Below are positions 26,193 through 36,906 of a stretch of DNA of 45,844 nt, piece after piece (within the stretch, counting starts at the first letter, position 1; each line of letters starts with the position of its first letter). The translations under genes were made by a program, and so were the position numbers. The notes under the pieces are model-generated. The model saw only the letters and a list, made by a program, of their open reading frames with translations, did not search any database and had not been told where the DNA came from. Source of the DNA: Bifidobacterium breve. GTDB taxonomy: Bacteria > Actinomycetota > Actinomycetes > S36-B12 > CAIYMF01. The stretch spans positions 1 to 45,844 of the forward strand of contig CALQEM020000001.1 in the NCBI GenBank assembly GCA_943329595.2, given 5' to 3'.

Positions 26193-27488
26193 ATGGCAAG
26201 CCTGCGCGACTCGGTGCTCGCGGCCTCGATCGGGCGCGACCGCGTCGTCGACGCAGTCAAGGGAGCGGCTCTGCTGCTCGTGGTGATCGGCCACAACCTC
26301 GCGTGGACCTCGCTGCCCGGCGGTGAGGCGCAGACCACGCTCGATGCAGCGCCCCAATTCTTCTGGCTTACCTGGCTGCTGCAGATCATTCCGCTGTTCT
26401 TCGTGATGGCCGGAGTCGGGCTGCGCCGTCTGGCGGGCGCCGCTCCGAGCGCGTACCTCTCGCGGGTCTCGCGCCTGCTCACCCCCACCCTTCCGCTGGT
26501 GGCCGCTGCCGTCGTGATCGCCGCGATCGTCGGGGCTGTGGCGCCGGACCTCGCTCCTGTCGCGGGCGTGCTTCCGGTGCAACTGCTGTGGTTCATCGGC
26601 GTGTACCTGCTGGTGATCGCGGTGGCACCGGTCCTGCTGCGCGTCACACGCGGGTGGCAGTTTGCCCTGTGGCTGTGCGCCATCGCCAGCGTCGACCTCG
26701 GCCGCGTCACGGTAGATGAATCCTTCGGCTGGCTCAACCTGCTGCTTATCTGGGCGCTATTCGCCGGTCTCGGAGTGAACCTCGTGCGGCTGCGCTCGCT
26801 ACCGCGCTGGCAGGTAATGGTGGCTCTGGCCGCGAGCATCGCCGGAGCCTGCCTGCTGGTGTGGCTCGGCCCCTACTCCCGCGCCCTCATCTCCACCGAT
26901 GCCGTGCCAGGAATCTCGAACCTTGCGCCTCCCACCCTGGTGCTCGCCCTTGCCGGCATCGCCCAAACCTGCGCGCTGCTGCTGGTGTGGGACCCTCTCG
27001 CCCGTCTGCTGGCACGCGACCGGGTGTGGGTGCCGGTCGCGGTGTTCTCCTCGCGCGCGATGGAGCTCTACGTCTACCACGTGCTGCTGATGGCGCTGCT
27101 CATCAGCGGCGTACTCGCCCTGAATATCGCCCCCGCCGCGCTGTCTGCCAGCTGGTGGGCGCTGCACCTGGTGGTCCTCGCCATCGATGCCGGCACCCTG
27201 CTGCTGCTCGCCCCCACGCTGCGCCATCTCTCGTCGCGGCTGACGGCGGCGCTGGCCCGCGGTGTTCCGGCCAGTCTCGCTCGCATGCTCGCGAACGGAC
27301 CCAGATCGCGAGCGCTGGTCGTCGCCGCCGCCCTTGGCATCACCGTGCTGCTCGTCAGCGAGGGTGGGGTCAACGACCTCGTGACTCCGAGAACCGTGGT
27401 GGTGCTGCCGTACGTGCCGATCGTGGCTCTAGCGCTTCTCACGGTCGGTACCGCGGTGGCCGCGCGGGCGAGTCAGAGGCTGAACTGA
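26193..27488 (+). CDS. Acyltransferase-3 family membrane protein
   Basis: DAVKGAALLLVVIGHNLAW at the N-terminus and about 10 TM helices. Confidence 0.8.
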   Translation: MASLRDSVLAASIGRDRVVDAVKGAALLLVVIGHNLAWTSLPGGEAQTTLDAAPQFFWLTWLLQIIPLFFVMAGVGLRRLAGAAPSAYLSRVSRLLTPTLPLVAAAVVIAAIVGAVAPDLAPVAGVLPVQLLWFIGVYLLVIAVAPVLLRVTRGWQFALWLCAIASVDLGRVTVDESFGWLNLLLIWALFAGLGVNLVRLRSLPRWQVMVALAASIAGACLLVWLGPYSRALISTDAVPGISNLAPPTLVLALAGIAQTCALLLVWDPLARLLARDRVWVPVAVFSSRAMELYVYHVLLMALLISGVLALNIAPAALSASWWALHLVVLAIDAGTLLLLAPTLRHLSSRLTAALARGVPASLARMLANGPRSRALVVAAALGITVLLVSEGGVNDLVTPRTVVVLPYVPIVALALLTVGTAVAARASQRLN

Positions 27489-28201
27489 CCTCGAAGAACC
27501 GTGGTGGCCGAGTGTTGGGGATTCCCGTCAACGGGCTCGTCAGAGATGTCGACCGCCGAGTACACCGACAGCGGAAGCCCCGAGGGAACACTGAACTCGG
27601 CATGTGACTGGCCTGACGACATGGTGCCCAGCGAAATCAGCCCCGAGTCGTCAGGGCTCATCAGCCACACCTCGTAAAACCCAGCAGAGGATCCGAGCCC
27701 CACGGCGTCGACCTCCACGTGGTACCCGACGGCGTCCTGAAGGAGCGCGGCGCGACCCCCGGTGGCCGTACTGGTCGTGCCGGGCAGCGGCGCGAGTTCT
27801 GTTGACGCCACGATCACCGCTGAACCCGACCGCGAGGGCAGCAGGCCGAGAACTCCCGCCCCGCCCACCACCAGAGCGAGAGCGGCCGCCACCGCCACCA
27901 GCGGCCACCATCTCCGGGCGTGACGCGCGGGGCGAAGCTCGACCACGCTGCCGGCAGAGTGGGGTACGTCGGTCGCGTCGGTGTCAGCAACGAAGGCCAA
28001 CGCAGCGATGCGGCCCCACACATCGGGGCTCGGGCCGGGCACCTCGACGACGCCCAACCGGGCAAGGGCGACCACGTCGGTGAGCGAGGCGAGCTCACTC
28101 TGACAGCCGACGCAGGAGTTGAGGTGGGCGACGAGGTCGGCGTCGTCGACGGGCTCACCCAGCGCCATGAGGGCGAGAAGATCAGGGTCACAGTGCGGCA
28201 C
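27473..28201 (-). CDS. Anti-sigma factor, zf-HC2 N-terminus plus RskA-type extracytoplasmic domain
   Basis: HLNSCVGCQSEL (HxxxCxxC), one TM helix (WWPLVAVAAALALVVGGAGVL), and a C-terminal YEVWLMSPDDSGLISLGTM...FSVP...VDISDEPVDGNP...VLRG resembling the anti-sigma-K RskA domain. Confidence 0.8.
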   Translation of the reverse strand: MPHCDPDLLALMALGEPVDDADLVAHLNSCVGCQSELASLTDVVALARLGVVEVPGPSPDVWGRIAALAFVADTDATDVPHSAGSVVELRPARHARRWWPLVAVAAALALVVGGAGVLGLLPSRSGSAVIVASTELAPLPGTTSTATGGRAALLQDAVGYHVEVDAVGLGSSAGFYEVWLMSPDDSGLISLGTMSSGQSHAEFSVPSGLPLSVYSAVDISDEPVDGNPQHSATTVLRGQFSL

Positions 28202-28736
28202 GGTTCACCTCCAGTCGGGTGCGCAGGCGCTCGAGCGAGCGTCTGATGTGGCTCTTCACGGTGCCCAGCGGTAAGTCGAGGTGCAGTGCTATCTGTTGGT
28301 GTGTGAGGTCGGAATAAAAGGCTAGTCGCATGATGTGGCCGGCCGGGTTGCCGAGGCTATCGAGCTCCTCGGCCAGAAGCACCCGGTCGACCACGTGGTC
28401 GTGGTGGCCGTCAACACCCTGCTCGTGCTCGTCAACCGCTAGCGCGAGGGTGTGAGGCGTTCTGCCCTCGCGCCGATAGTGGTCAGCGATACGTCGCCGG
28501 GTGATTCCGAGCAACCACCCCGGCAGTGACCCTGCGCCCGGGTCGTAGCTCGCCCGCGAGTTCCACGCCGATACGAACACCGCCTGGGTCACGTCGTCGG
28601 CGTCGGCGGGCGTGGGCACCGACTTCAGCGCCACGCCGTGCACCAGCCGAGACCAGCGGCGGTAGCACTCTTCCAGCGCCGCCTCGTCACCCACGGAGAG
28701 GCGAGCCCCGAGCTCGTCGGGACTCGCCTCCTCCAT
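28188..28736 (-). CDS. ECF (group 4) sigma-70 family factor, SigK-like by context
   Basis: Region 2 DADDVTQAVFVSAW...GWLLGITRRRIADHYR and region 4 LTHQQIALHLDLPLGTVKSHIRRSLERLR. Overlaps the anti-sigma start by 14 nt. Start at ATG 28736 (MEEASPDE). Confidence 0.9.
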   Translation of the reverse strand: MEEASPDELGARLSVGDEAALEECYRRWSRLVHGVALKSVPTPADADDVTQAVFVSAWNSRASYDPGAGSLPGWLLGITRRRIADHYRREGRTPHTLALAVDEHEQGVDGHHDHVVDRVLLAEELDSLGNPAGHIMRLAFYSDLTHQQIALHLDLPLGTVKSHIRRSLERLRTRLEVNRAAL

Positions 28737-28787
28737 GAACCGATCTTCACACACATCAGTCGATACCAACACTCGTGGAAGCGTGGG

Positions 28788-29516
28788 TCAGCAGGTCAAG
28801 CCCTTGGGGCAGTTGGCAGGGTTGTACGGAGCCGGGTCGATGTCGACGGGCAGGATGACCCGGTTGATCACGTGGGCGATCTGCTTGTTGCCCTTGTTGA
28901 TGTCGACCACGATTACCCGCGCATTGCGGAACTGACGGGCCGTGTCGTAGAGCGCGATCTGCCCGTGCACCATGCGGAGCGATACCTGCGAGCCGGAGAA
29001 CATCGTGAGCGTGGCCCTCGCGTGCGCCGCTGCCATGGCAGCGTGCGAGTTGATGGTGCCCGCGGTGCAGTGGGAGAGCAGAACCGTCTCCACGACGTCA
29101 ACCGCCGTGGTGCCGTTGCCGATGCTGGTGGCTAGAGTACCGGCGTACTGGACGACGCCGGTGAACACGTTGGCCTCGGTTCTGATGGTCTTTCCGGTGG
29201 CAGCCTCGGCGAAGTACTTGAACGCGAGGTCAGTGGGTGCGAAGCAGGTGAGGGAGTTGCGCCCGTTGGCGAGCTTCTTCACCGGAGAGTTCGGCTTCAC
29301 AGTAAGCACCGTGGCGACGGCCTTCGTGAGGATGTCGAGATCTGCCCAGTTCTTGTCGAAGGCGGGGTTGGCGACGTTGAGGACCGTTGCCAGCGAACGG
29401 GTTCCCATCGACGTGCGATCGATCGGTGCGGCGGAGGCAGGCACGACCGCGGATGCCACGAGTGCCGCCGAGGCCACTCCAGCCACCGCTACAGCCATGA
29501 GACGAACACGACGCAT
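28788..29516 (-). CDS. Secreted fasciclin (FAS1)-domain protein, copy A
   Basis: Signal peptide MRRVRLMAVAVAGVASAALVASAVVPASAAP. FAS1 blocks LTCFAPTDLAF and IAHVINRVILP. AAGGAG lies upstream of ATG 29516. Confidence 0.85.
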   Translation of the reverse strand: MRRVRLMAVAVAGVASAALVASAVVPASAAPIDRTSMGTRSLATVLNVANPAFDKNWADLDILTKAVATVLTVKPNSPVKKLANGRNSLTCFAPTDLAFKYFAEAATGKTIRTEANVFTGVVQYAGTLATSIGNGTTAVDVVETVLLSHCTAGTINSHAAMAAAHARATLTMFSGSQVSLRMVHGQIALYDTARQFRNARVIVVDINKGNKQIAHVINRVILPVDIDPAPYNPANCPKGLTC

Positions 29517-29565
29517 GGAAAATCTCCTTATGTCGGAGGCCCCGACTAGGGCCACTCCCCCACTC

Positions 29566-29593
29566 TGTCGTTAGCACCGGCCCAGGTGGATGC
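29566..29593 (-). promoter_or_regulatory. Candidate ECF-type promoter of fasciclin A (GCATCC-17 nt-CGACA on the reverse strand)
   Basis: The same hexamer, spacer length and distance to the ATG recur upstream of fasciclin B. The surrounding leader sequence has diverged. Confidence 0.4.
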
Positions 29594-29612
29594 ACCCGAA
29601 GCAAGAAAACTC

Positions 29613-29676
29613 TCAGCGGCCCGGATCCTCCGCCGGACCCACGTGGTCGGCCAACCACTCGAGCAGCGGGCGCACT
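29613..29676 (-). pseudogene. Remnant of the DUF2461 gene 3' end (last ~19 codons plus stop), left by the tandem duplication
   Basis: Encodes PLLEWLADHVGPAEDPGR*, identical to 30652-30708, with no upstream coding body. Confidence 0.7.
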
Positions 29677-29775
29677 GTGCACCAGTCGCGGCCACCGGAG
29701 GTAGCACTCTTCTAGCGCTGCCTCATCACCTAGGAAAAGGCGAGCCCCGAGGTCGTCGGGGCTCGCCTCCTCCAT
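29677..29775 (-). pseudogene. Remnant of the ECF sigma gene 5' end (first ~33 codons), fused to the DUF2461 remnant
   Basis: MEEASPDDLGARLFLGDEAALEECYLRWPRLVH versus MEEASPDELGARLSVGDEAALEECYRRWSRLVH in the intact gene. Track ORF 29230..29811 then continues out of frame across fasciclin A. Confidence 0.75.
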
Positions 29776-29826
29776 GAACCGATCTTCACACACATCAGTC
29801 GATACCAACACTCGTGGAAGCGTGTG

Positions 29827-30555
29827 TCAGCACACCAGGCCGGGAGGGCACTTACCAGGGTTGTACGGGGCCGGGTCGATGTCGAAGGACACGATCACCC
29901 GGTTGATCGCGTGGGCGATCTGCTTGTTGCCGATGTTGATGTCGGCCACGATCACGCGTGGGTTGCGGAACTTCTGCCCGCCGTCGTAGAGCGCGATCTG
30001 CCCGTGCACCATGCGGAGCTGTACGTTCGACGTGGAGAACATCGTGAGCGTGGCCCTCGCGTGCGCCGCCGCGATGGCAGCGTGAGAGTTGATGGTGCCC
30101 GCGGTGCAGTGGGAGAGCAGGACCCTCTCCACGACGTCAACCGCCGTGTAGCCGCCGCCAAGGCCTGCGGCGAGGGTGCCGGCGTACTGGACGAGCCCGT
30201 TGAACACGTTGCCTTCCCTCCTGATGTTCTGCCCAGTGGCACCCTGGTGGAAGTGCTTAAAAGCCAGGTCAGTGGGAGCGAAGCAGGTGAGGGCGTTGCG
30301 CCCGTTGACGAGCTTCTTCACCGGCGAGTTCGGCTTCTCCGTGAGCACCGTGGCAATGGCCCTCGTGAGGATGTCGAAGTCTCCCCAGTTATTGTCGAAG
30401 GCGGGGTTGGCGACGTTGAGGACCGCTGCCAGCGAACGGGTTCCCATCGCCGTGCGATCGATCGGTGCGGCGGAGGCAGGCACCACTGCAGAGGCAACGA
30501 GTGCCGCCGAGGCCACTCCAGCCACTGCTGCGGCCGTGAAACTAACACGACGCAT
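29827..30555 (-). CDS. Secreted fasciclin (FAS1)-domain protein, copy B
   Basis: 242 aa, with 193 of 242 residues identical to copy A by my count. Same signal peptide core and FAS1 blocks. Confidence 0.85.
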   Translation of the reverse strand: MRRVSFTAAAVAGVASAALVASAVVPASAAPIDRTAMGTRSLAAVLNVANPAFDNNWGDFDILTRAIATVLTEKPNSPVKKLVNGRNALTCFAPTDLAFKHFHQGATGQNIRREGNVFNGLVQYAGTLAAGLGGGYTAVDVVERVLLSHCTAGTINSHAAIAAAHARATLTMFSTSNVQLRMVHGQIALYDGGQKFRNPRVIVADINIGNKQIAHAINRVIVSFDIDPAPYNPGKCPPGLVC

Positions 30556-30604
30556 GGAAAATCTCCTTCCGCGGAAGGCCCCGACTGAGCCCACAATCAC
30601 ATTA

Positions 30605-30651: not shown

Positions 30652-31296
30652 TCAGCGGCCCGGATCCTCCGCCGGACCCACGTGGTCGGCCAACCACTCG
30701 AGCAGCGGTCGCATCGCTCGCCAGTCGCGCTTCACCGTGGTGAGAGCCTTACGACTGCTGACCCACGGCTCGACCCCGTAGTTCCGCGCCACGGTGATTC
30801 GCCGGGCACGCAGCAGGTCCAGCCGAGGGTGGTCGGCGTCGTACCCCTTGGGCTTCGTCGCGAGCAGGTTCATGTCGAATGCGAACGCGCGCGGCACCGC
30901 CGCCACCAACAGCTCGAGCTCAACTCCGAAGGGTCCGTCGACTGCCTCGCGATAGCGGCGCATCTGTTCACCGCCCGGCGAGTACCAGCCGCCCGCCACC
31001 ATGAGCCCCTGCGCCGACACCTGAACGTAGTAGCCCACGGCGTCCTCGAGGGTGACCGTCGCACCCTGATGGGTCTTGATGGGGTCGCCCTTGCTGAACC
31101 GCGCATCGTTGTGGGGGCGAAAGAGCTTGGCAGCGCCGAACTCGTCGGCGAGCTCGGAGGTCAGCGCCAGCATCGGAGCCTTCACCAACGACTCGTACTC
31201 TCCCTTGTGCTCGGCCCACCACACCTTGGTGTTGTTAGCGGCAAGCCGCTCATAGAAATCAAAGGCCTGAGGGGAAAATCCAGCGAAGTCGGTCAT
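30652..31296 (-). CDS. DUF2461 (TIGR02453-like) family protein
   Basis: MTDFAGFSPQAFDFYERLAANNTKVWWAEHKGEYE...FRPHNDARFSKGDPIKTH...GGWYSPG...R. ATG 31296 overlaps the kinase stop (ATGA). Confidence 0.8.
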   Translation of the reverse strand: MTDFAGFSPQAFDFYERLAANNTKVWWAEHKGEYESLVKAPMLALTSELADEFGAAKLFRPHNDARFSKGDPIKTHQGATVTLEDAVGYYVQVSAQGLMVAGGWYSPGGEQMRRYREAVDGPFGVELELLVAAVPRAFAFDMNLLATKPKGYDADHPRLDLLRARRITVARNYGVEPWVSSRKALTTVKRDWRAMRPLLEWLADHVGPAEDPGR

Positions 31297-32681
31297 GCCT
31301 CCAGCGTGCCAGAGCTTGCGGCGGCCCGCGGAAGCTCCACCCAGAAGGTGCACCCCTGCCCGAGCGTCGACTCCACTCCGATGCGTCCCTGGTGGGCCGC
31401 GACGATTCCTGACGCGATCGCCAGTCCGAGACCGCTGCCACCCGTGGCGCGGGCCCGCGCGGCGTCCGCGCGGTAGAAGCGGTCGAACACGTGGGCGGCG
31501 TCCTCGGCACTGAGCCCCGGCCCGTGGTCGGCCACCTCGACGCGCCAACAGTCACCCCGCTCAAGCATTCGCACCTGCACATCGCAGCCGGCTGGCGTGT
31601 GCTTGCGCGCGTTGTCGAGCAGTGCCCCCACCACCTGGGTAAGTCTGTTTGCGTCGCCCGCGACGGCGGCCTCGGTGGGTCCGTCGAGGTCGAAGGCGCG
31701 GCTGGGGTCGATGGCGCGCGCATCGGACACCAGCCCGGCGACGACCGCGACGAGATCGACCCGGTCATGCCGGAAGTCGGGTCCGCGGTCCATCTCGGCC
31801 AGCAGCAGGAGGTCGTCGACGAGGCCGCCCATACGGAGGGCCTCCTGCCGGATGCGGCGCATCGCATCGTCAACGCTCGCCGGGTCACTGAGCCCTCCGG
31901 CGGCCCGCAGCGCCGCGTAGCCAGACAGCGTGGCCAAGGGGGTGCGCAGTTCGTGCGAAGCGTCGGCCACGAACTGTCGCAGGCGCGCCTGGGCAACCTC
32001 GTTCTCCTCGACCAGCCTGTTGAAAGCCTGCCCGAGTTCCTGCGCCTCCGTGCCTTCGGGAAACGCTGGCACCCGCTGGGTCGTGTCACCGGCGCCAATG
32101 GCACGGGCCACCCCGGTGACCTCGGCGATGGGCCTGAGCCCGAGCCGCACCATCCACCAAAACACCAGAGCGATGACGCCCAGAAGCAGGGCACCGATGC
32201 CCAGCAGGTTGCGGGCCAAGGTCGCAGACGCGGCGTCGACGTCGGCGAGGGACTGCCCCACCACCGCAGACGCGCCCATCGGCCCTGGGAAAGCGACCAC
32301 CCGCATGCGCTCCCCCGAGCCCCCGGTGGTCTCGACAGTGGTCGGAGCCGCGTACGAGCGGCCCGGCTTCAGCACGGGGGTGGTTCCGGGGTCGCTCTCG
32401 GGGGTGCCCACCGTCATCATCACGCCGTTAGCCTCGAGCCTCCCGACGTACAGGTCGGCCAGCGAACGTTGTCCGCGCGCATTGGGTGCGTCGGGGGGGT
32501 CGTTGGGGGTAAGCGGCGCCAGCGCAGCCGCAGACATCGCCGGCCGGCGCAACGAGTCGAAGCGTGAGTCAACCTGCTGCAGCAGGGTTGCCGACTGAAC
32601 TCGGAAGAGCACGTAGCCCGCGATGAGGAGCAGCGCGATGACCGCGCCGAGCGCAAACAGCAGCCGCGAGCGGAGCGTCAT
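31293..32681 (-). CDS. Sensor histidine kinase (2 TM helices, periplasmic loop, HAMP, HisKA, HATPase_c)
   Basis: H-box FVADASHELRTPLATL, N/G boxes LLDNARKHTP and DHGPGL...GGSGLGLAI. Start at ATG 32681 overlaps the regulator stop (TGATG). Confidence 0.9.
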   Translation of the reverse strand: MTLRSRLLFALGAVIALLLIAGYVLFRVQSATLLQQVDSRFDSLRRPAMSAAALAPLTPNDPPDAPNARGQRSLADLYVGRLEANGVMMTVGTPESDPGTTPVLKPGRSYAAPTTVETTGGSGERMRVVAFPGPMGASAVVGQSLADVDAASATLARNLLGIGALLLGVIALVFWWMVRLGLRPIAEVTGVARAIGAGDTTQRVPAFPEGTEAQELGQAFNRLVEENEVAQARLRQFVADASHELRTPLATLSGYAALRAAGGLSDPASVDDAMRRIRQEALRMGGLVDDLLLLAEMDRGPDFRHDRVDLVAVVAGLVSDARAIDPSRAFDLDGPTEAAVAGDANRLTQVVGALLDNARKHTPAGCDVQVRMLERGDCWRVEVADHGPGLSAEDAAHVFDRFYRADAARARATGGSGLGLAIASGIVAAHQGRIGVESTLGQGCTFWVELPRAAASSGTLEA

Positions 32682-33364
32682 CACGGCTCCCTGATGGTGT
32701 AGCCCACACCGCGCACGGTGCGGATCAGCTTGGGCTCGCCCGCGTCGACCTTCTTGCGCAGGTTGCTGACGAACGACTCGATGATGGACGAGTCTCCGTT
32801 GAAGTCGTACTGCCACACGGTGTCGAGGATCTGCGCTCGGCTTACCACCCGGCCCGCGTTGGTCATCAGGTATCGCAGCAGGTTGAACTCGGTGGGAGAC
32901 AGCAGGGCCTCCTGGCCCCCACGCCACACCCGGTGCGAGTCAAGGTCAAGTTCGAGGTCGGCCACGGCCAGTCGCGACGACTCGACCCCGGCTCCCGCGC
33001 GACGCAGTGCGACCTGCACCCGCGCCACGAGTTCCTCGAGCGCGAAGGGCTTGGTGATGTAGTCATCGCCCCCGATGGTGAGGCCCTTCACGCGGTCGGC
33101 GGTGTCGTGGCGCGCTGTGACAAAGAGGATGGGCGCCCGGCAGCCCTTGTTACGCAGCCGCGTGAGCAGGTCGAACCCGTCGAAATCAGGAAGCATCACG
33201 TCGAGCACGATCACGTCGGGCGCGAACCGGTCAACCTCTTCCAGCGCCTCAAGACCCGAGGCCACGGCCCGGGTCTCGAAGTCAGCGAGGCCCAGGGCCG
33301 AGGTAATGAGGAACGAGAGGTTTTCCTCATCGTCGACTACGAGCACTCGCGGAGTTGTCGCCAT
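32681..33364 (-). CDS. OmpR/PhoB-family response regulator
   Basis: VLVVDDEENL...VIVLDVMLPDFDG receiver domain and a winged-helix C-terminus LSPTEFNLLRYLM...IRTVRGVGY. Confidence 0.9.
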   Translation of the reverse strand: MATTPRVLVVDDEENLSFLITSALGLADFETRAVASGLEALEEVDRFAPDVIVLDVMLPDFDGFDLLTRLRNKGCRAPILFVTARHDTADRVKGLTIGGDDYITKPFALEELVARVQVALRRAGAGVESSRLAVADLELDLDSHRVWRGGQEALLSPTEFNLLRYLMTNAGRVVSRAQILDTVWQYDFNGDSSIIESFVSNLRKKVDAGEPKLIRTVRGVGYTIREP

Positions 33365-33415
33365 GCCATCACTCTCCCACTCTCACCTGAAGGCAGGCTC
33401 GACGCTTCCTGAACG

Positions 33416-33471
33416 TTGGCTGGATGCATTCTCCAGCCAATCTCCAGCCGTCCTTGCAGACCGCTCCAGCC
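33416..33471. promoter_or_regulatory. Phased direct repeats CTCCAGCC (x3, starts 33431, 33442, 33464) plus an inverted copy (33418-33424) in the divergent promoter region
   Basis: The 11- and 22-bp spacings equal one and two helical turns. The repeats sit 67-107 nt upstream of the repeat-protein ATG and 52-107 nt upstream of the regulator ATG. Confidence 0.5.
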
Positions 33472-33537
33472 CCCGTGGGGATCGTAGTGATGTGCCCGAA
33501 GACGTCGGGCAAACCACTCATAGAGAGCGAGACCACG

Positions 33538-34611
33538 ATGAACACCCGATTCAAGACAGTGCTCACCATCGCCGGAGTCGCCACCACTGGCGCCCTGATT
33601 CTCGGCGGTACTGCCGCGAACGCCGCCAACACCACCCCGACGCCTTCCACGAGCGCCACGGAGTGCACCGGGCCGGCGTCGTCACTGACCGGCGACCAGT
33701 GCAGCACCTTCCTCAACGACATCGCCTCGGTACGCGCCCAGCGTGACGCCGTGTTCGTTAAGTACGGGCTCACAGCACCCACCGGGGGCGACCACGAGGG
33801 ACGCGAGCAGGTCGAAACCCTCAGCGCCGACCAGAAGGCCGCCTTCAAGGCCGACATGGAGCCGGTGCGCACCGCACGCGACGCTGTGTTCGCGAAGTAC
33901 GGCATCACCGCCCCCGAGCACGGACCCCGTGACGGCCGGGGCGGACCCGGCGGCCAGGGCGACCCCGCGGCCAACCTCACCGATGCCCAGCGATCCGCAC
34001 TTCGCACCGACATGACTGCGATCGACGCCCAGCGCGACGCCGTGTTCGCCAAGTACGGCATCACCGCTCCCACCGAGGGTGACCGTGGCGACGGTCGCGA
34101 GGGCGTCCGCGAGCAGGTCGAGGCCCTCAGCGCCGACCAGCAGGCCGCGTTCAAGGCTGACATGGAGCCCGTGCGCGAAGCACGCGATGCCGCCTTCGCC
34201 GAGTACGGGATCACAGCACCCGAGCACGGACCCCGTGACGGCCAGGGCGGACCTGGTGGACCCGGCCACGAGGGCGACCCCGCGGCCGACCTCACCGATG
34301 CCCAGCGATCCGCGCTTCGCACCGACATGACTGCCGTCGAGGCCCAGCGCGACGCCGTGTTCGCCAAGTACGGCATCACCGCTTCCACCGAGGGTGACCG
34401 TGGCGACGGTGGCCAGGGCGTGCGCGACCAGGTCGAGGCTCTCAGCGCCGACCAGCAGGCCGCGTTCAAGGCAGACATCGAGCCCGTGCGCGAAGCACGC
34501 GACGCGGCCTTCGCCGAGTACGGCATCACCGCACCCGAGCACGGCCCCCGTGGCGGCCAGGGTGGCGGCCAGGGTGGACCCGTTCACCAGGACGCCACCC
34601 CCGCGTCCTAA
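33538..34611 (+). CDS. Secreted repeat protein with six L[TS]xxQ modules (Spy/CpxP/ZraP-like candidate)
   Basis: Signal peptide MNTRFKTVLTIAGVATTGALILGGTAANA. Six 32-aa modules L[TS]xxQxxx[FL]xxD[MI]xx[VI]xxxRDAxFxxYG[IL]TA[PS], joined by Gly/Pro/Asp/Glu/His/Arg-rich linkers. Confidence 0.7.
   Translation: MNTRFKTVLTIAGVATTGALILGGTAANAANTTPTPSTSATECTGPASSLTGDQCSTFLNDIASVRAQRDAVFVKYGLTAPTGGDHEGREQVETLSADQKAAFKADMEPVRTARDAVFAKYGITAPEHGPRDGRGGPGGQGDPAANLTDAQRSALRTDMTAIDAQRDAVFAKYGITAPTEGDRGDGREGVREQVEALSADQQAAFKADMEPVREARDAAFAEYGITAPEHGPRDGQGGPGGPGHEGDPAADLTDAQRSALRTDMTAVEAQRDAVFAKYGITASTEGDRGDGGQGVRDQVEALSADQQAAFKADIEPVREARDAAFAEYGITAPEHGPRGGQGGGQGGPVHQDATPAS
33961..34590 (+). repeat. Two tandem 315-bp (105-codon) units inside the repeat-protein gene, with a third more diverged unit at about 33685-33960
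   Basis: Both units begin gaccccgcggcc[a/g]acctcaccgatgcccagcgatccgc, at 33961 and 34276. They look roughly 90% identical by eye. Confidence 0.9.
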
Positions 34612-34890: not shown

Positions 34891-35334
34891 TCAGTCGCCG
34901 AACAGGCGCTCATGCTCCATGTACATGCATCGGTCCATGACCACCGATAGCCCCGCGGCCTCGGCTCGCCGTGCGATGCCCTCGTCACTCAGGCCCAGTT
35001 GGAGCCACAGTGTTGTCGCACCCACTTCGATCGCCTCATCGAGCACCTCGGGCAGGTCGGACACCTTACGAAAGACGTCAACGATGTCGGGCGGCTCGGG
35101 CAGCGACCGCAGGTCGGGGAAGGTGCGGTGCCCCATGATCGAGTCGACTCGGGGGTTCACTAACCACACCGTGTAGTCGGTGCTGGTCAGCAGGTAACTC
35201 GCCACGGAGAAACTCGCACGGTCGGGATTGTCGGAGGCGCCCACAACAGCCACGGTGCGCGCCCGGCCCAGAATCGCAAGCAATGCGGAGTCAGTGGGCG
35301 CGAGCCACGGGGACTGCTCGGAGTCAGGTGACAC
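34891..35334 (-). CDS. CoA-binding domain protein (YccU-like)
   Basis: RTVAVVGASDNPDRASFSVASYL...VWLVNP...PDIVDVFR...LWLQLG. GTG 35334 is preceded by AAGGAG at 5 nt. The track start 35385 would overlap the PAS gene. Confidence 0.8.
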   Translation of the reverse strand: MSPDSEQSPWLAPTDSALLAILGRARTVAVVGASDNPDRASFSVASYLLTSTDYTVWLVNPRVDSIMGHRTFPDLRSLPEPPDIVDVFRKVSDLPEVLDEAIEVGATTLWLQLGLSDEGIARRAEAAGLSVVMDRCMYMEHERLFGD

Positions 35335-35348
35335 GTCAGCTCCTTCGC

Positions 35349-35732
35349 TCAGCCCCGCGGCGTGATGTCGAGCGAAATGCCGCACATGCCGACGAGCTCG
35401 CCGGATGCGTTGCGCATGGGGCTTTTGGTGGTGAGGTACACGCGCTGCTCACCGGTCTCCTTGACGATGTCGTGCTCCTCGCGCCGCACTGTCACGCCGT
35501 CAGCGATGACCTTCAAATCGTTGACCCGCAGCTCGTTCGACTGCTCCAGGTCAAAGAACTGGCTGTCGTCATGTCCGCGGATCCCGTCGAGCGAGGCCCC
35601 GAAGAGGCTCTGCACCGCCCTGTTCGCGTAAACGTAGTTTCCGTCGAGATCCTTGCTATACACGAACGCGTCGAGCGAGTCCAGGATCGCCAGCGCGTCT
35701 GCGGCTGACGAGTCCGTCGGGTCAATGCTCAT
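35349..35732 (-). CDS. Stand-alone PAS-domain protein
   Basis: ILDSLDAFVYSKDLDGNYVYANRAVQSLFG...TTKSPMRNASGELVGMCGISLDIT. ATG 35732 is preceded by GAGGA. Confidence 0.75.
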   Translation of the reverse strand: MSIDPTDSSAADALAILDSLDAFVYSKDLDGNYVYANRAVQSLFGASLDGIRGHDDSQFFDLEQSNELRVNDLKVIADGVTVRREEHDIVKETGEQRVYLTTKSPMRNASGELVGMCGISLDITPRG

Positions 35733-35826
35733 GGTGTTCCTCACGTAGGGCGTGCGTGGGCAATCAAACAACACCGTACGCCCACCCACCATCGATCCGC
35801 GGGCCAACACCATAGACTCGCGCACC

Positions 35827-36906
35827 ATGAGTGCCAGTGCTGAGGTCGAGATCGTCATTCCCGCCGACCATCGAGTGCTCATCGTCGGCGGCGCAGGCTT
35901 TATCGGCCACCACCTCGCCCTAGCGCTTCACGAGCGCGGTGCTACGGCGCTCGTAATAGATGACCTCAGCGTTAACCACCTCAATGCGCACCAGGAGATG
36001 TCACGCCCCGGGGTGAATCGTCCCCTCTACACCGCAATCGCCCAGGCTCGCCTCGATCTGCTCGCCGACGAGGGCATCGAGGTGCGTCACCAGAGCGGCC
36101 GCGACGTGAACCAGCTGTCCGAGACACTGTCCGAGTTCGCGCCACACACCGTCGTGCAACTCGCGGCGATCTCCCATGCGAGCCGGTCGAACGCCGACCC
36201 CCACCGGGCGTACCAGAACGGTATGGAGACACTCGAGGCAACCCTCGAGGCGATTCGCCGCCATCCGGGAAGCCATCTCGTCTACACGTCGTCGAGCATG
36301 GTCTACGGAAACTTCGCCACTCCCGTGGTCGATGAGGAGGCGCCCTGTGACCCCCTCGGCATCTACGGCGCCCTGAAGTTCGGCGGCGAGGTGCTGATCC
36401 GGGCCCATTCGCGCGTCTCTGGACTCGAGCACACGATCGTCCGACCCTCGGCCGCCTACGGCCCCCGCTGTATCGGGCGCCGATTCATCCAGACGTCGAT
36501 TGAGAATGCCATCGCAGGCATGCCGCTGCAGGTGACCGGTGATGGCCAGGAGCTCGTCGACTTCACCTACATCGACGACCTCGTGCAGGGCCTGCTGCGC
36601 GTCATCGCGGTGCCGGACGCGCGCGGCGAGATCATCAACATCACCACCGGCAAGGCGGCCTCACTCCTCGAAGCAGCCGAGATCGTGATGAGGCGCTTTG
36701 AGGGCAGCCGGCTCGAGCACCTGCCCCGCAGCGCGGCGGTACCCAAGCGGGGCACCCTCGACATCAGCAAGGCACAGGACCTGCTCGGCTACCAGCCACG
36801 ATTCACCATAGAGACGGGCGTCAATGCCACCGTCGACTGGTACACCGAGCTGAGCCGCCAACGCCCCGAGTTATTCGAGATCGGCGCGCCGATCGTCAAT
36901 GAGTGA
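35827..36906 (+). CDS. NAD-dependent epimerase/dehydratase (extended SDR)
   Basis: VLIVGGAGFIGHHL and YxxxK (YGALK). The stop TGA abuts the convergent Dabb stop (TGATCA, 36904-36909). Confidence 0.85.
   Translation: MSASAEVEIVIPADHRVLIVGGAGFIGHHLALALHERGATALVIDDLSVNHLNAHQEMSRPGVNRPLYTAIAQARLDLLADEGIEVRHQSGRDVNQLSETLSEFAPHTVVQLAAISHASRSNADPHRAYQNGMETLEATLEAIRRHPGSHLVYTSSSMVYGNFATPVVDEEAPCDPLGIYGALKFGGEVLIRAHSRVSGLEHTIVRPSAAYGPRCIGRRFIQTSIENAIAGMPLQVTGDGQELVDFTYIDDLVQGLLRVIAVPDARGEIINITTGKAASLLEAAEIVMRRFEGSRLEHLPRSAAVPKRGTLDISKAQDLLGYQPRFTIETGVNATVDWYTELSRQRPELFEIGAPIVNE

Follow-up and report, generated by a model that had tools for sequence, protein, structure and literature searches.

A gene for a secreted, predicted all-helical repeat protein lies divergent from an operon encoding an OmpR-type response regulator (RR) and a HAMP histidine kinase (HK) in the stretch of DNA analyzed here, 45,844 nucleotides of contig CALQEM020000001.1 (the window, to which all coordinates refer unless another locus is named). 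We posit, with a probability of about 0.5, that this locus represents a conserved signaling module of an uncultured Actinomycetota clade, in which the secreted protein is controlled by a PhoP-type regulator and acts as an accessory of the adjoining kinase. Four lines of evidence carry this reading: the divergent gene order recurs in related genomes, the regulator most resembles Mycobacterium tuberculosis (Mtb) PhoP, the intergenic region between the two transcription units holds a conserved repeat element with the geometry of a PhoP box, and the repeat protein has a signal peptide throughout its family and is modeled with confidence as two-helix units.

A secreted protein divergent from a PhoP-type operon

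The repeat-protein gene (33538-34611, plus strand) encodes 357 amino acids (aa) and is separated by 173 bp from the RR gene on the opposite strand. Its Sec-type signal is recognizable by inspection (aa 1-29: MNTRFK, a hydrophobic core, and a boundary between ANA and AN), and its homologs begin at the equivalent Met. The six modules, which make up three two-helix units, each contain an L[TS]xxQ motif (at aa 50, 95, 147, 197, 252, and 302) that continues into ...D[MI]...RDA.F..YG[LI]TA[PS]; a Cys43/Cys55 pair brackets the first of these motifs. The minus strand carries the RR gene (32681-33364; Pfam Response_reg, E 3e-28, and Trans_reg_C, E 3.5e-26), the HK gene (31293-32681; Pfam HAMP, HisKA, and HATPase_c), and a gene for a DUF2461 protein (TIGR02453; 30652-31296) that matches PF09365 with E 1.2e-40 and 140.2 bits and scores 99.5 bits against TIGR02453, slightly below the 105.4-bit cut-off. 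At the RR/HK junction, which reads ...CCGTGATGACG..., the TGA and the ATG have one base in common (TGATG), and at the HK/DUF2461 junction, which reads ...GCATGACC..., the HK stop and the DUF2461 start overlap by four bases (ATGA). An earlier reading made from the same letters (the original prediction) had proposed these genes, their coordinates and overlaps, and a divergent Sec-signal protein with six modules 173 bp away; all are confirmed in the sequence. By inspection, the kinase has two transmembrane segments around an extracytoplasmic loop of ~125 aa that holds no cysteines, followed by the HAMP, HisKA, and HATPase_c domains. It reaches no NCBIfam equivalog cut-off, its best match being the heavy-metal HK subfamily (203 vs 292 bits), and scores 126 bits against the CpxA model, for which the cut-off is 486; nor does the two-component system as a whole reach any NCBIfam equivalog cut-off, with CpxA/CpxR, BaeS, MtrAB, and CseB among the models.

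The two-component system had been described as Cpx/Zra-like, a label that the regulator does not carry. Its best match in the PDB is instead Mtb PhoP, at 261.7 bits (PrrA, 173.8; RegX3, 161.1; MtrA, 157.7) and 54% identity over 223 aa, and among solved structures the RR is thus, by sequence comparison, a member of the OmpR/PhoB family of the Mtb PhoP type. Mtb PhoP binds TCACAGC-N4-TCACAGC, in which two direct repeats of 7 bp are always separated by 4 bp, via helix alpha-8 and the wing (PMC4832192). The recognition helix of the RR reads SIIESFVSNLRKK, compared with NVVESYVSYLRRK in Mtb; among the DNA-contacting residues of PhoP (roles from PMC4832192), E215 and S216 are retained, as are T235, R237, and G238 of the wing; V213I and Y217F are conservative substitutions, and two base-contacting residues differ (N212S and Y220N).

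The intergenic region contains a direct-repeat array (33430-33471, plus strand) that faces the repeat-protein gene and consists of TCTCCAG-CCAA-TCTCCAG followed by a third CTCCAGCC; a repeat search finds CTCCAGCC in three exact copies, at spacings of 11 and 22 bp. The TCTCCAG-CCAA-TCTCCAG dimer (33430-33447) occurs nowhere else in the 45.8-kb window (expected, 0.08), and its 7-bp motif and 4-bp spacer reproduce the geometry of the PhoP box (PMC4832192). The likeness to the Mtb PhoPR system (Rv0757/Rv0758) extends to a regulator gene with a divergent neighbor and regulator sites between the two (PMC4038636) and, in the aligned intergenic regions of the related loci, to several half-sites, such as TCCACAG and TCACAAG, that come near TCACAGC (PMC4832192); unlike in Mtb, the half-site consensus here is shifted to TCTCCAG. 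Toward the RR gene lies an imperfect array, CATCCAG-CCAA-CGTTCAG (33407-33428, minus strand; a match in the scan for the core at 33424, minus strand), and the opposed arrays stand head-to-head, with an inverted repeat of 16-nt arms that are 81% complementary. Two-way arrays resembling those of the window are present at three related loci (L006, L014, and L015).

Comparison across relatives indicates that this element is conserved. When seven intergenic regions are aligned, the columns without variation concentrate at the repeat element, and TCCAG-N6-TCCAG, allowing up to one mismatch, occurs 6.3 times per kb in 12 intergenic regions vs 0.083 times per kb in the other 157 kb, an enrichment of ~77-fold. 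When four held-out loci were scored with a weight matrix derived from the others, the top site anywhere in the locus fell in the intergenic region in three of them (L013, L014, and L015), and the array facing the secreted gene is located 76-91 nt from the start of that gene in six of seven loci. Scans for sigma-70 promoters and intrinsic terminators between 33300 and 34800 found none, a result that is uninformative for actinobacteria. The window also shows CACTCTC twice, 8 bp apart, at 33370-33384 (plus strand), directly 5' of the RR start codon, and a 14-nt inverted repeat (33486-33518; 86% complementary, 5-nt loop) 20-50 nt 5' of the repeat-gene start. The latter is not conserved: RNAalifold predicted zero shared pairs 5' of the secreted gene in relatives, and a conserved structure in the 5' untranslated region was rejected on this ground.

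The gene order was followed with a scan of one genome per species using one short family motif. Eight loci were confirmed, all in metagenome-assembled genomes of uncultured Actinomycetota, one of them from Nanopelagicales and zero from Mycobacterium, which suggests, within the reach of a single short motif, that mycobacteria lack the repeat-protein family. The family gene is divergent from RR-HK genes at six of the seven informative loci (L003, L004, L006, L008, L009, and L010), where the RR is 72-88%, the HK 53-61%, and the secreted protein merely 33-55% identical to its counterpart in the window. Contigs found via family members add L013, L015, and L016, which have the same divergent layout with RR-HK, and L014, where an RR gene is present beside the family gene and the contig then ends. 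The layout had been expected to be conserved in related genomes, and indeed it holds at 10 of 11 informative independent loci overall, while the flanking genes beyond the family gene and RR-HK differ from locus to locus. This synteny is the strongest result of the analysis, and the conservation of the module itself has good support. Elsewhere on L014 (1531-5000), the family gene is followed by a gene for a 127-aa putative secreted protein or lipoprotein, a gene for a helical protein of 307 aa that bears several LTxxQR motifs and matches PF07813 faintly, and then a second RR-HK pair, a region that may be another module of similar logic.

The DUF2461 gene does not share in this conservation. Its coupling to the kinase, singled out in the original prediction as unusual, is real in the window, where the two genes overlap, and is confined to this lineage: DUF2461 is found at none of nine related loci with the HK downstream flank present (L003-L010, by tblastn, and L013-L016; L014, whose contig stops within the RR gene, is outside the count). 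DUF2461 was therefore rejected as a module component: it is a passenger of the operon peculiar to this lineage, with no function given in the literature. At the same HK-downstream position, a DUF2202 (ferritin-like) gene is convergent to the HK gene in L013 (2112-2933) and L016 (1880-2626), and crcB genes are found in L015 and probably, as judged from the layout, in L006.

A small family of secreted helical-hairpin proteins

The repeat protein belongs to a very small family that lacks annotation and whose known members all come from uncultured Actinomycetota. In a word-indexed search, 5.8 billion clusters yielded two proteins; an exhaustive HMMER search with a module profile yielded 27 from 1.84 billion representatives, and a profile search yielded 25. 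No member is named in any source except as "hypothetical protein", NCBIfam gives nothing meaningful for the repeat protein, and a literature search for LTXXQ proteins in Actinobacteria or Gram-positives found none. The typical member has 115-190 aa and comprises a signal peptide, which is present throughout the family, and two modules with (F)AKYG[LI]TAP at the end of each; the conserved start motif is C-x-G-P-A-A-S-L-S-x-x-Q-(C/H). Members with three, four, and six modules exist, most have two, and the protein of the window is the largest seen. In one 300-aa entry (P0049, on a short ENA contig of 1466 nt), the N-terminal ~130 aa of a family protein are fused to a short-chain dehydrogenase, probably through a gene call that is chimeric or frameshifted.

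The DNA repeat in the window recurs every 315 nt (2.5 copies, 89% matches, Tandem Repeats Finder score 1189) rather than every 96-150 nt, and the true unit is accordingly a pair of modules, A and B, present three times. Unit 1 (modules 1-2, aa 45-126; 33670-33915, plus strand) is supported by the family alignment (A3) and AlphaFold2, unit 2 (modules 3-4, aa 142-228; 33961-34221, plus strand) by the AlphaFold helices, and unit 3 (modules 5-6, aa 247-333; 34276-34536, plus strand) by the 315-nt period and by module identity with unit 2. As judged from sequence comparison, unit 1 is the ancestral two-module unit, common to all family members, and unit 3 is the latest duplicate of unit 2: at the nucleotide level modules 3 and 5 are 95% and modules 4 and 6 are 94% identical, identity falls to 83-85% between module 2 and either module 4 or module 6, and module 1 diverges from the rest. 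Codon differences among the B-type modules lean toward the synonymous (synonymous/non-synonymous: 4 vs 6, 5/1; 2 vs 4, 9/4; 2 vs 6, 6/5), weakly supporting the plus frame as coding given the small counts; modules 3 and 5, with two synonymous and three non-synonymous differences, show no such lean, again from small counts.

The expansion is recent. A 154-aa, two-module protein (P0004, on a 2170-nt ENA contig) is 94-97% identical to the protein of the window over their common part and lacks modules 3-6 and the GQ-rich tail, so the module number differs among very close strains. The six-module gene itself recurs on an independent metagenome contig (L002), 99.7% identical and with one amino-acid difference. 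The six L[TS]xxQ modules described in the original prediction are thus present, as a lineage-specific expansion in a family that, like CpxP and ZraP, normally has two.

The expectation of helical modules was borne out by structure prediction. AlphaFold2, run with the family alignment on the first two modules, gave a predicted local distance difference test (pLDDT) value of 80 and a predicted template modeling score (pTM) of 0.68, and modeled each module as a short helix followed by a 24-residue helix that begins just after L[TS], two residues past each Leu, with two L[TS]xxQ motifs per structural unit. The predicted long helices span aa 52-75 and 97-120 in unit 1, aa 149-172 and 199-222 (pLDDT >90) in unit 2, and aa 254-277 and 304-327 in unit 3. 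In the full-length model (pTM 0.39), three confident two-helix units are connected by disordered linkers without a set arrangement of the units; the linkers flanking unit 2 (aa 130-137 and 231-244) have pLDDT <50. The Gly/Pro/His/Asp/Glu linkers had also been proposed to bind metal. Metal binding was rejected as a conserved feature, as the linkers of relatives are G/R-rich, and AlphaFold predicts disorder.

Neighboring genes

Directly downstream of DUF2461 lies a SigK/RskA-type locus (27473-30600, minus strand), composed of genes for an extracytoplasmic function sigma factor (28188-28772), an anti-sigma factor with an RskA_C domain (27473-28201), and two fasciclin-like secreted paralogs resembling MPT70/MPT83 (28788-29555 and 29827-30600), all on the minus strand. 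Between the paralogs, an open reading frame (ORF; 29230-29811) starts with MLVSTDVCEDRFMEEASPD..., like the intact sigma gene, and is a remnant of a sigma 5' end; the arrangement looks like a tandem duplication of fasciclin and the 5' part of sigK. On the other side, just downstream of the repeat gene, are genes for a CoA_binding_2 protein (34891-35385, minus strand) and a stand-alone PAS protein (35349-35882, minus strand), the longest ORF of the latter overlapping the CoA_binding_2 ORF by 37 bp. Both are present on the near-identical contig L002; tblastn did not find them in the other related loci.

A proposed accessory of the kinase and its alternatives

We infer that the regulator, once phosphorylated, most likely recognizes the two opposed arrays (7-bp repeats, 4-bp spacers) in the common intergenic region, and that it would from this position govern the secreted protein as well as its own operon. 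The secreted protein would most likely interact with the kinase on the outer side of the membrane as an accessory, either as a feedback modulator, as a client- or ligand-binding partner, or as both, and its action, modeled by analogy on CpxP with CpxA or ZraP with ZraS, could be activating or inhibiting. In this lineage, tandem duplication of the 315-nt two-module unit has converted a one-unit protein into one with three independently folded units on flexible linkers, a change that would raise valency while leaving the fold as it was.

The proposed arrangement resembles several known systems, each in part. Like CpxP of Escherichia coli, the protein is small, secreted, and predicted to be all-helical, has L[TS]xxQ at the helix starts and two such motifs per basic unit, and is encoded divergently from an operon for an OmpR-type regulator and a HAMP kinase, with a regulator-type repeat element in the common intergenic region. 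Unlike in the Cpx system, the HK and RR are not CpxA and CpxR orthologs, and a simple two-helix unit, here triplicated, is predicted in place of the four-helix cradle of CpxP. ZraP provides the closest sequence signal, and its gene, too, is divergent from a two-component operon; the divergent placement of both cpxP and zraP in E. coli, from cpxRA and zraSR respectively, is confirmed. In contrast to the sigma-54/NtrC-type ZraSR, however, the RR here is OmpR-type (Response_reg plus Trans_reg_C), and the G/M/H/C metal-binding tail of ZraP is not conserved in the family. Among actinobacterial OmpR-type systems, Streptomyces CutRS/CssRS are proposed to monitor extracytoplasmic protein folding (PMC12802291). 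CutR, however, binds TAWATAAA, to which the repeats of the window are unrelated, and CutS senses by two loop cysteines, whereas the HK loop in the window is cysteine-free, so identity with CutRS was rejected; no secreted accessory is described for CutRS.

Several findings weigh against the accessory reading, most of them from searches that follow up the proposed membership of the LTXXQ/Spy/CpxP family, which profile searches do not bear out. The whole repeat protein has no match to PF07813 at E ≤1; one two-module unit reaches E 0.32 and the mature protein E 0.93, compared with 78.3 bits for CpxP itself. PF13801 (Metal_resist, the ZraP family) is the top Pfam match of the mature repeat protein (E 2.7e-5), at scores (19.4 bits full length, 24.8 bits mature) below the gathering cut-off of 29.2, and the match covers only profile positions ~15-67 of 125, the first half. 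Unrelated helical families match the protein comparably (a Sulfolobus virus coat protein, 24.3 bits; DUF4296), and its weak profile scores are inflated because six-fold repetition multiplies chance matches. When the family alignment (A3) is compared with an alignment of ZraP orthologs (A4) by hhalign, the probability of 48% obtained with signal peptides included falls to 4.5% for the mature parts (E 0.009, 26 columns; reversed-sequence controls, E 0.47-0.62). Foldseek against the PDB finds generic alpha-hairpins, the best at E 1.0 being the MexA alpha-hairpin. Beyond the family assignment, the repeat protein shows no recognizable anchor, be it a lipobox, an LPXTG motif, or a transmembrane segment at the C terminus, and, were the organism monoderm, it might be lost from the kinase by diffusion; the repeats at L016 are present in a weak version only; and at L005, and probably on the short contig L001 too, the family gene stands without an adjoining two-component system.

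Other comparisons bear on the same kinship from either side. A homolog that is 49% identical (P0002) passes PF13801, with 35.5 bits full length and 30.8 bits mature and a clear margin over the next match; other family members score 16-26 bits or have no match. CpxP itself obtains merely 23.2 bits on PF13801, so clan-level relatives score in such a range. The stretch that hhalign still aligns once signal peptides are removed is a C-terminal '...R..RD....A..GI[PT]' with a Gly-rich tail; the family's '...R..RDA.FAKYG[IL]T' and Gly-rich tail are paired with '...RVKRDIAMAEAGIP' and a Gly-rich tail in ZraP. Against a single CpxP sequence, hhalign gives a probability of 1.2%. No match to the repeat protein was obtained by phmmer against the PDB at E ≤10; PDB searches with profiles of a module and of two modules returned designed helical repeats, the coat protein of Sulfolobus islandicus rod-shaped virus, and similar proteins, with no Spy, CpxP, or ZraP; and none of the three was among the 50 Foldseek matches listed, small helical hairpins giving such searches little power. 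Distant repeat proteins (P0025 and P0026) were considered as a bridge to LTXXQ proteins and rejected, as many unrelated helical families matched equally weakly. L-[ST]-x-x-[QE] is a generic helix N-cap, combining a hydrophobic staple with a capping box, and can arise convergently, so the LTxxQ-type motif alone is weak and non-diagnostic evidence. From these comparisons, we place true homology to CpxP, Spy, and ZraP at somewhat below even odds.

The most serious alternative to a kinase accessory, which we hold to be unlikely, is that the secreted protein is an output of the regulon without feedback on the kinase: an extracytoplasmic chaperone or holdase, a wall-associated protein, or an ion or metal buffer. 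Spy sets the precedent as a Cpx/Bae-induced chaperone that does not modulate a kinase, and the synteny and the cis-element fit this explanation equally well. The unlinked gene at L005 has ATCCCAG-GTTG-TATCCAG 121 nt upstream of its own start, and L001 has a degenerate version in the same place; a gene that keeps its repeat-like element without adjoining two-component genes is easier to accommodate as a regulon member than as an obligate kinase partner. Adjacency in 10 of 11 loci amid changing surroundings is, however, tighter than is usual for a regulon member, and metal buffering has no conserved basis, as the His/Asp/Glu linkers are not conserved.

It is quite improbable, in our estimate, that the repeats serve autoregulation of RR-HK only, the secreted gene having its own separate expression and no functional tie to the system. 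Common intergenic sites can play so restricted a role: in Mtb, PhoP is enriched in chromatin immunoprecipitation at the Rv0756c-phoP intergenic region, whereas Rv0756c changes only -1.24-fold and is not PhoP-dependent (PMC4038636), a precedent that also counts among the points against an accessory. The RR-facing arrays in the window (33407-33428), L006, L014, and L015 are consistent with autoregulation. But the second array faces the secreted gene at a near-constant 76-91 nt in six of seven loci, and synteny persists down to 33% protein identity; the L005 gene, moreover, keeps its repeat in the absence of a two-component neighbor, which argues that the repeats serve the secreted gene and not autoregulation alone.

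Two further explanations survive poorly. The beads-on-a-string full-length model with its disordered linkers, the variation in unit number between near-identical strains, and the weak matches of distant repeat relatives to the nematode polyprotein allergen (NPA) family could be taken to suggest a secreted precursor, whose units would be freed by linker cleavage and sensed by the adjoining kinase as an autocrine or quorum-type signal; this is very improbable, as most members are single-unit proteins with nothing to release, no conserved cleavage motif was found, and the Pfam NPA matches are as weak and non-specific as many others. Least probable of all is an assembly artefact of a two-module gene, which the near-identical P0004 and the readiness of tandem repeats to mis-assemble might suggest, since the independent contig L002 has the same six modules, the copies are distinguishable (module cores 94-95% and whole units 88% identical), and P0004 differs elsewhere and lacks the GQ-rich tail, and is thus a distinct allele and not a collapsed copy.

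An accessory encoded divergently from its two-component system is a known architecture; the protein family itself is undescribed and formally outside known families, and the PhoPR-like partner and the tandem expansion are unusual. To our knowledge, secreted accessories of the CpxP/ZraP kind have been described almost solely in Gram-negative bacteria, and the clade-wide PhoP-type neighbor together with the regulator's repeat element makes the secreted protein a concrete, testable accessory candidate in Actinomycetota, with the practical limit that all members come from uncultured organisms. A broader and more tentative proposal, which we regard as doubtful, is that the locus exemplifies a so far unrecognized family in Actinomycetota whose members, secreted helical-hairpin proteins, serve as partners of PhoPR-type kinases; the family would be a counterpart of CpxP/ZraP, either independent or very distantly related, in which the number of units (1, 1.5, 2, or 3) tunes signaling; the natural two-, three-, four-, and six-module alleles provide a built-in dose or valency series. 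The signal of PhoR-type kinases, including that of the Mtb virulence regulator PhoPR, is still debated, and, if the proposal is true, some of these kinases would read their signal via a secreted partner instead of directly.

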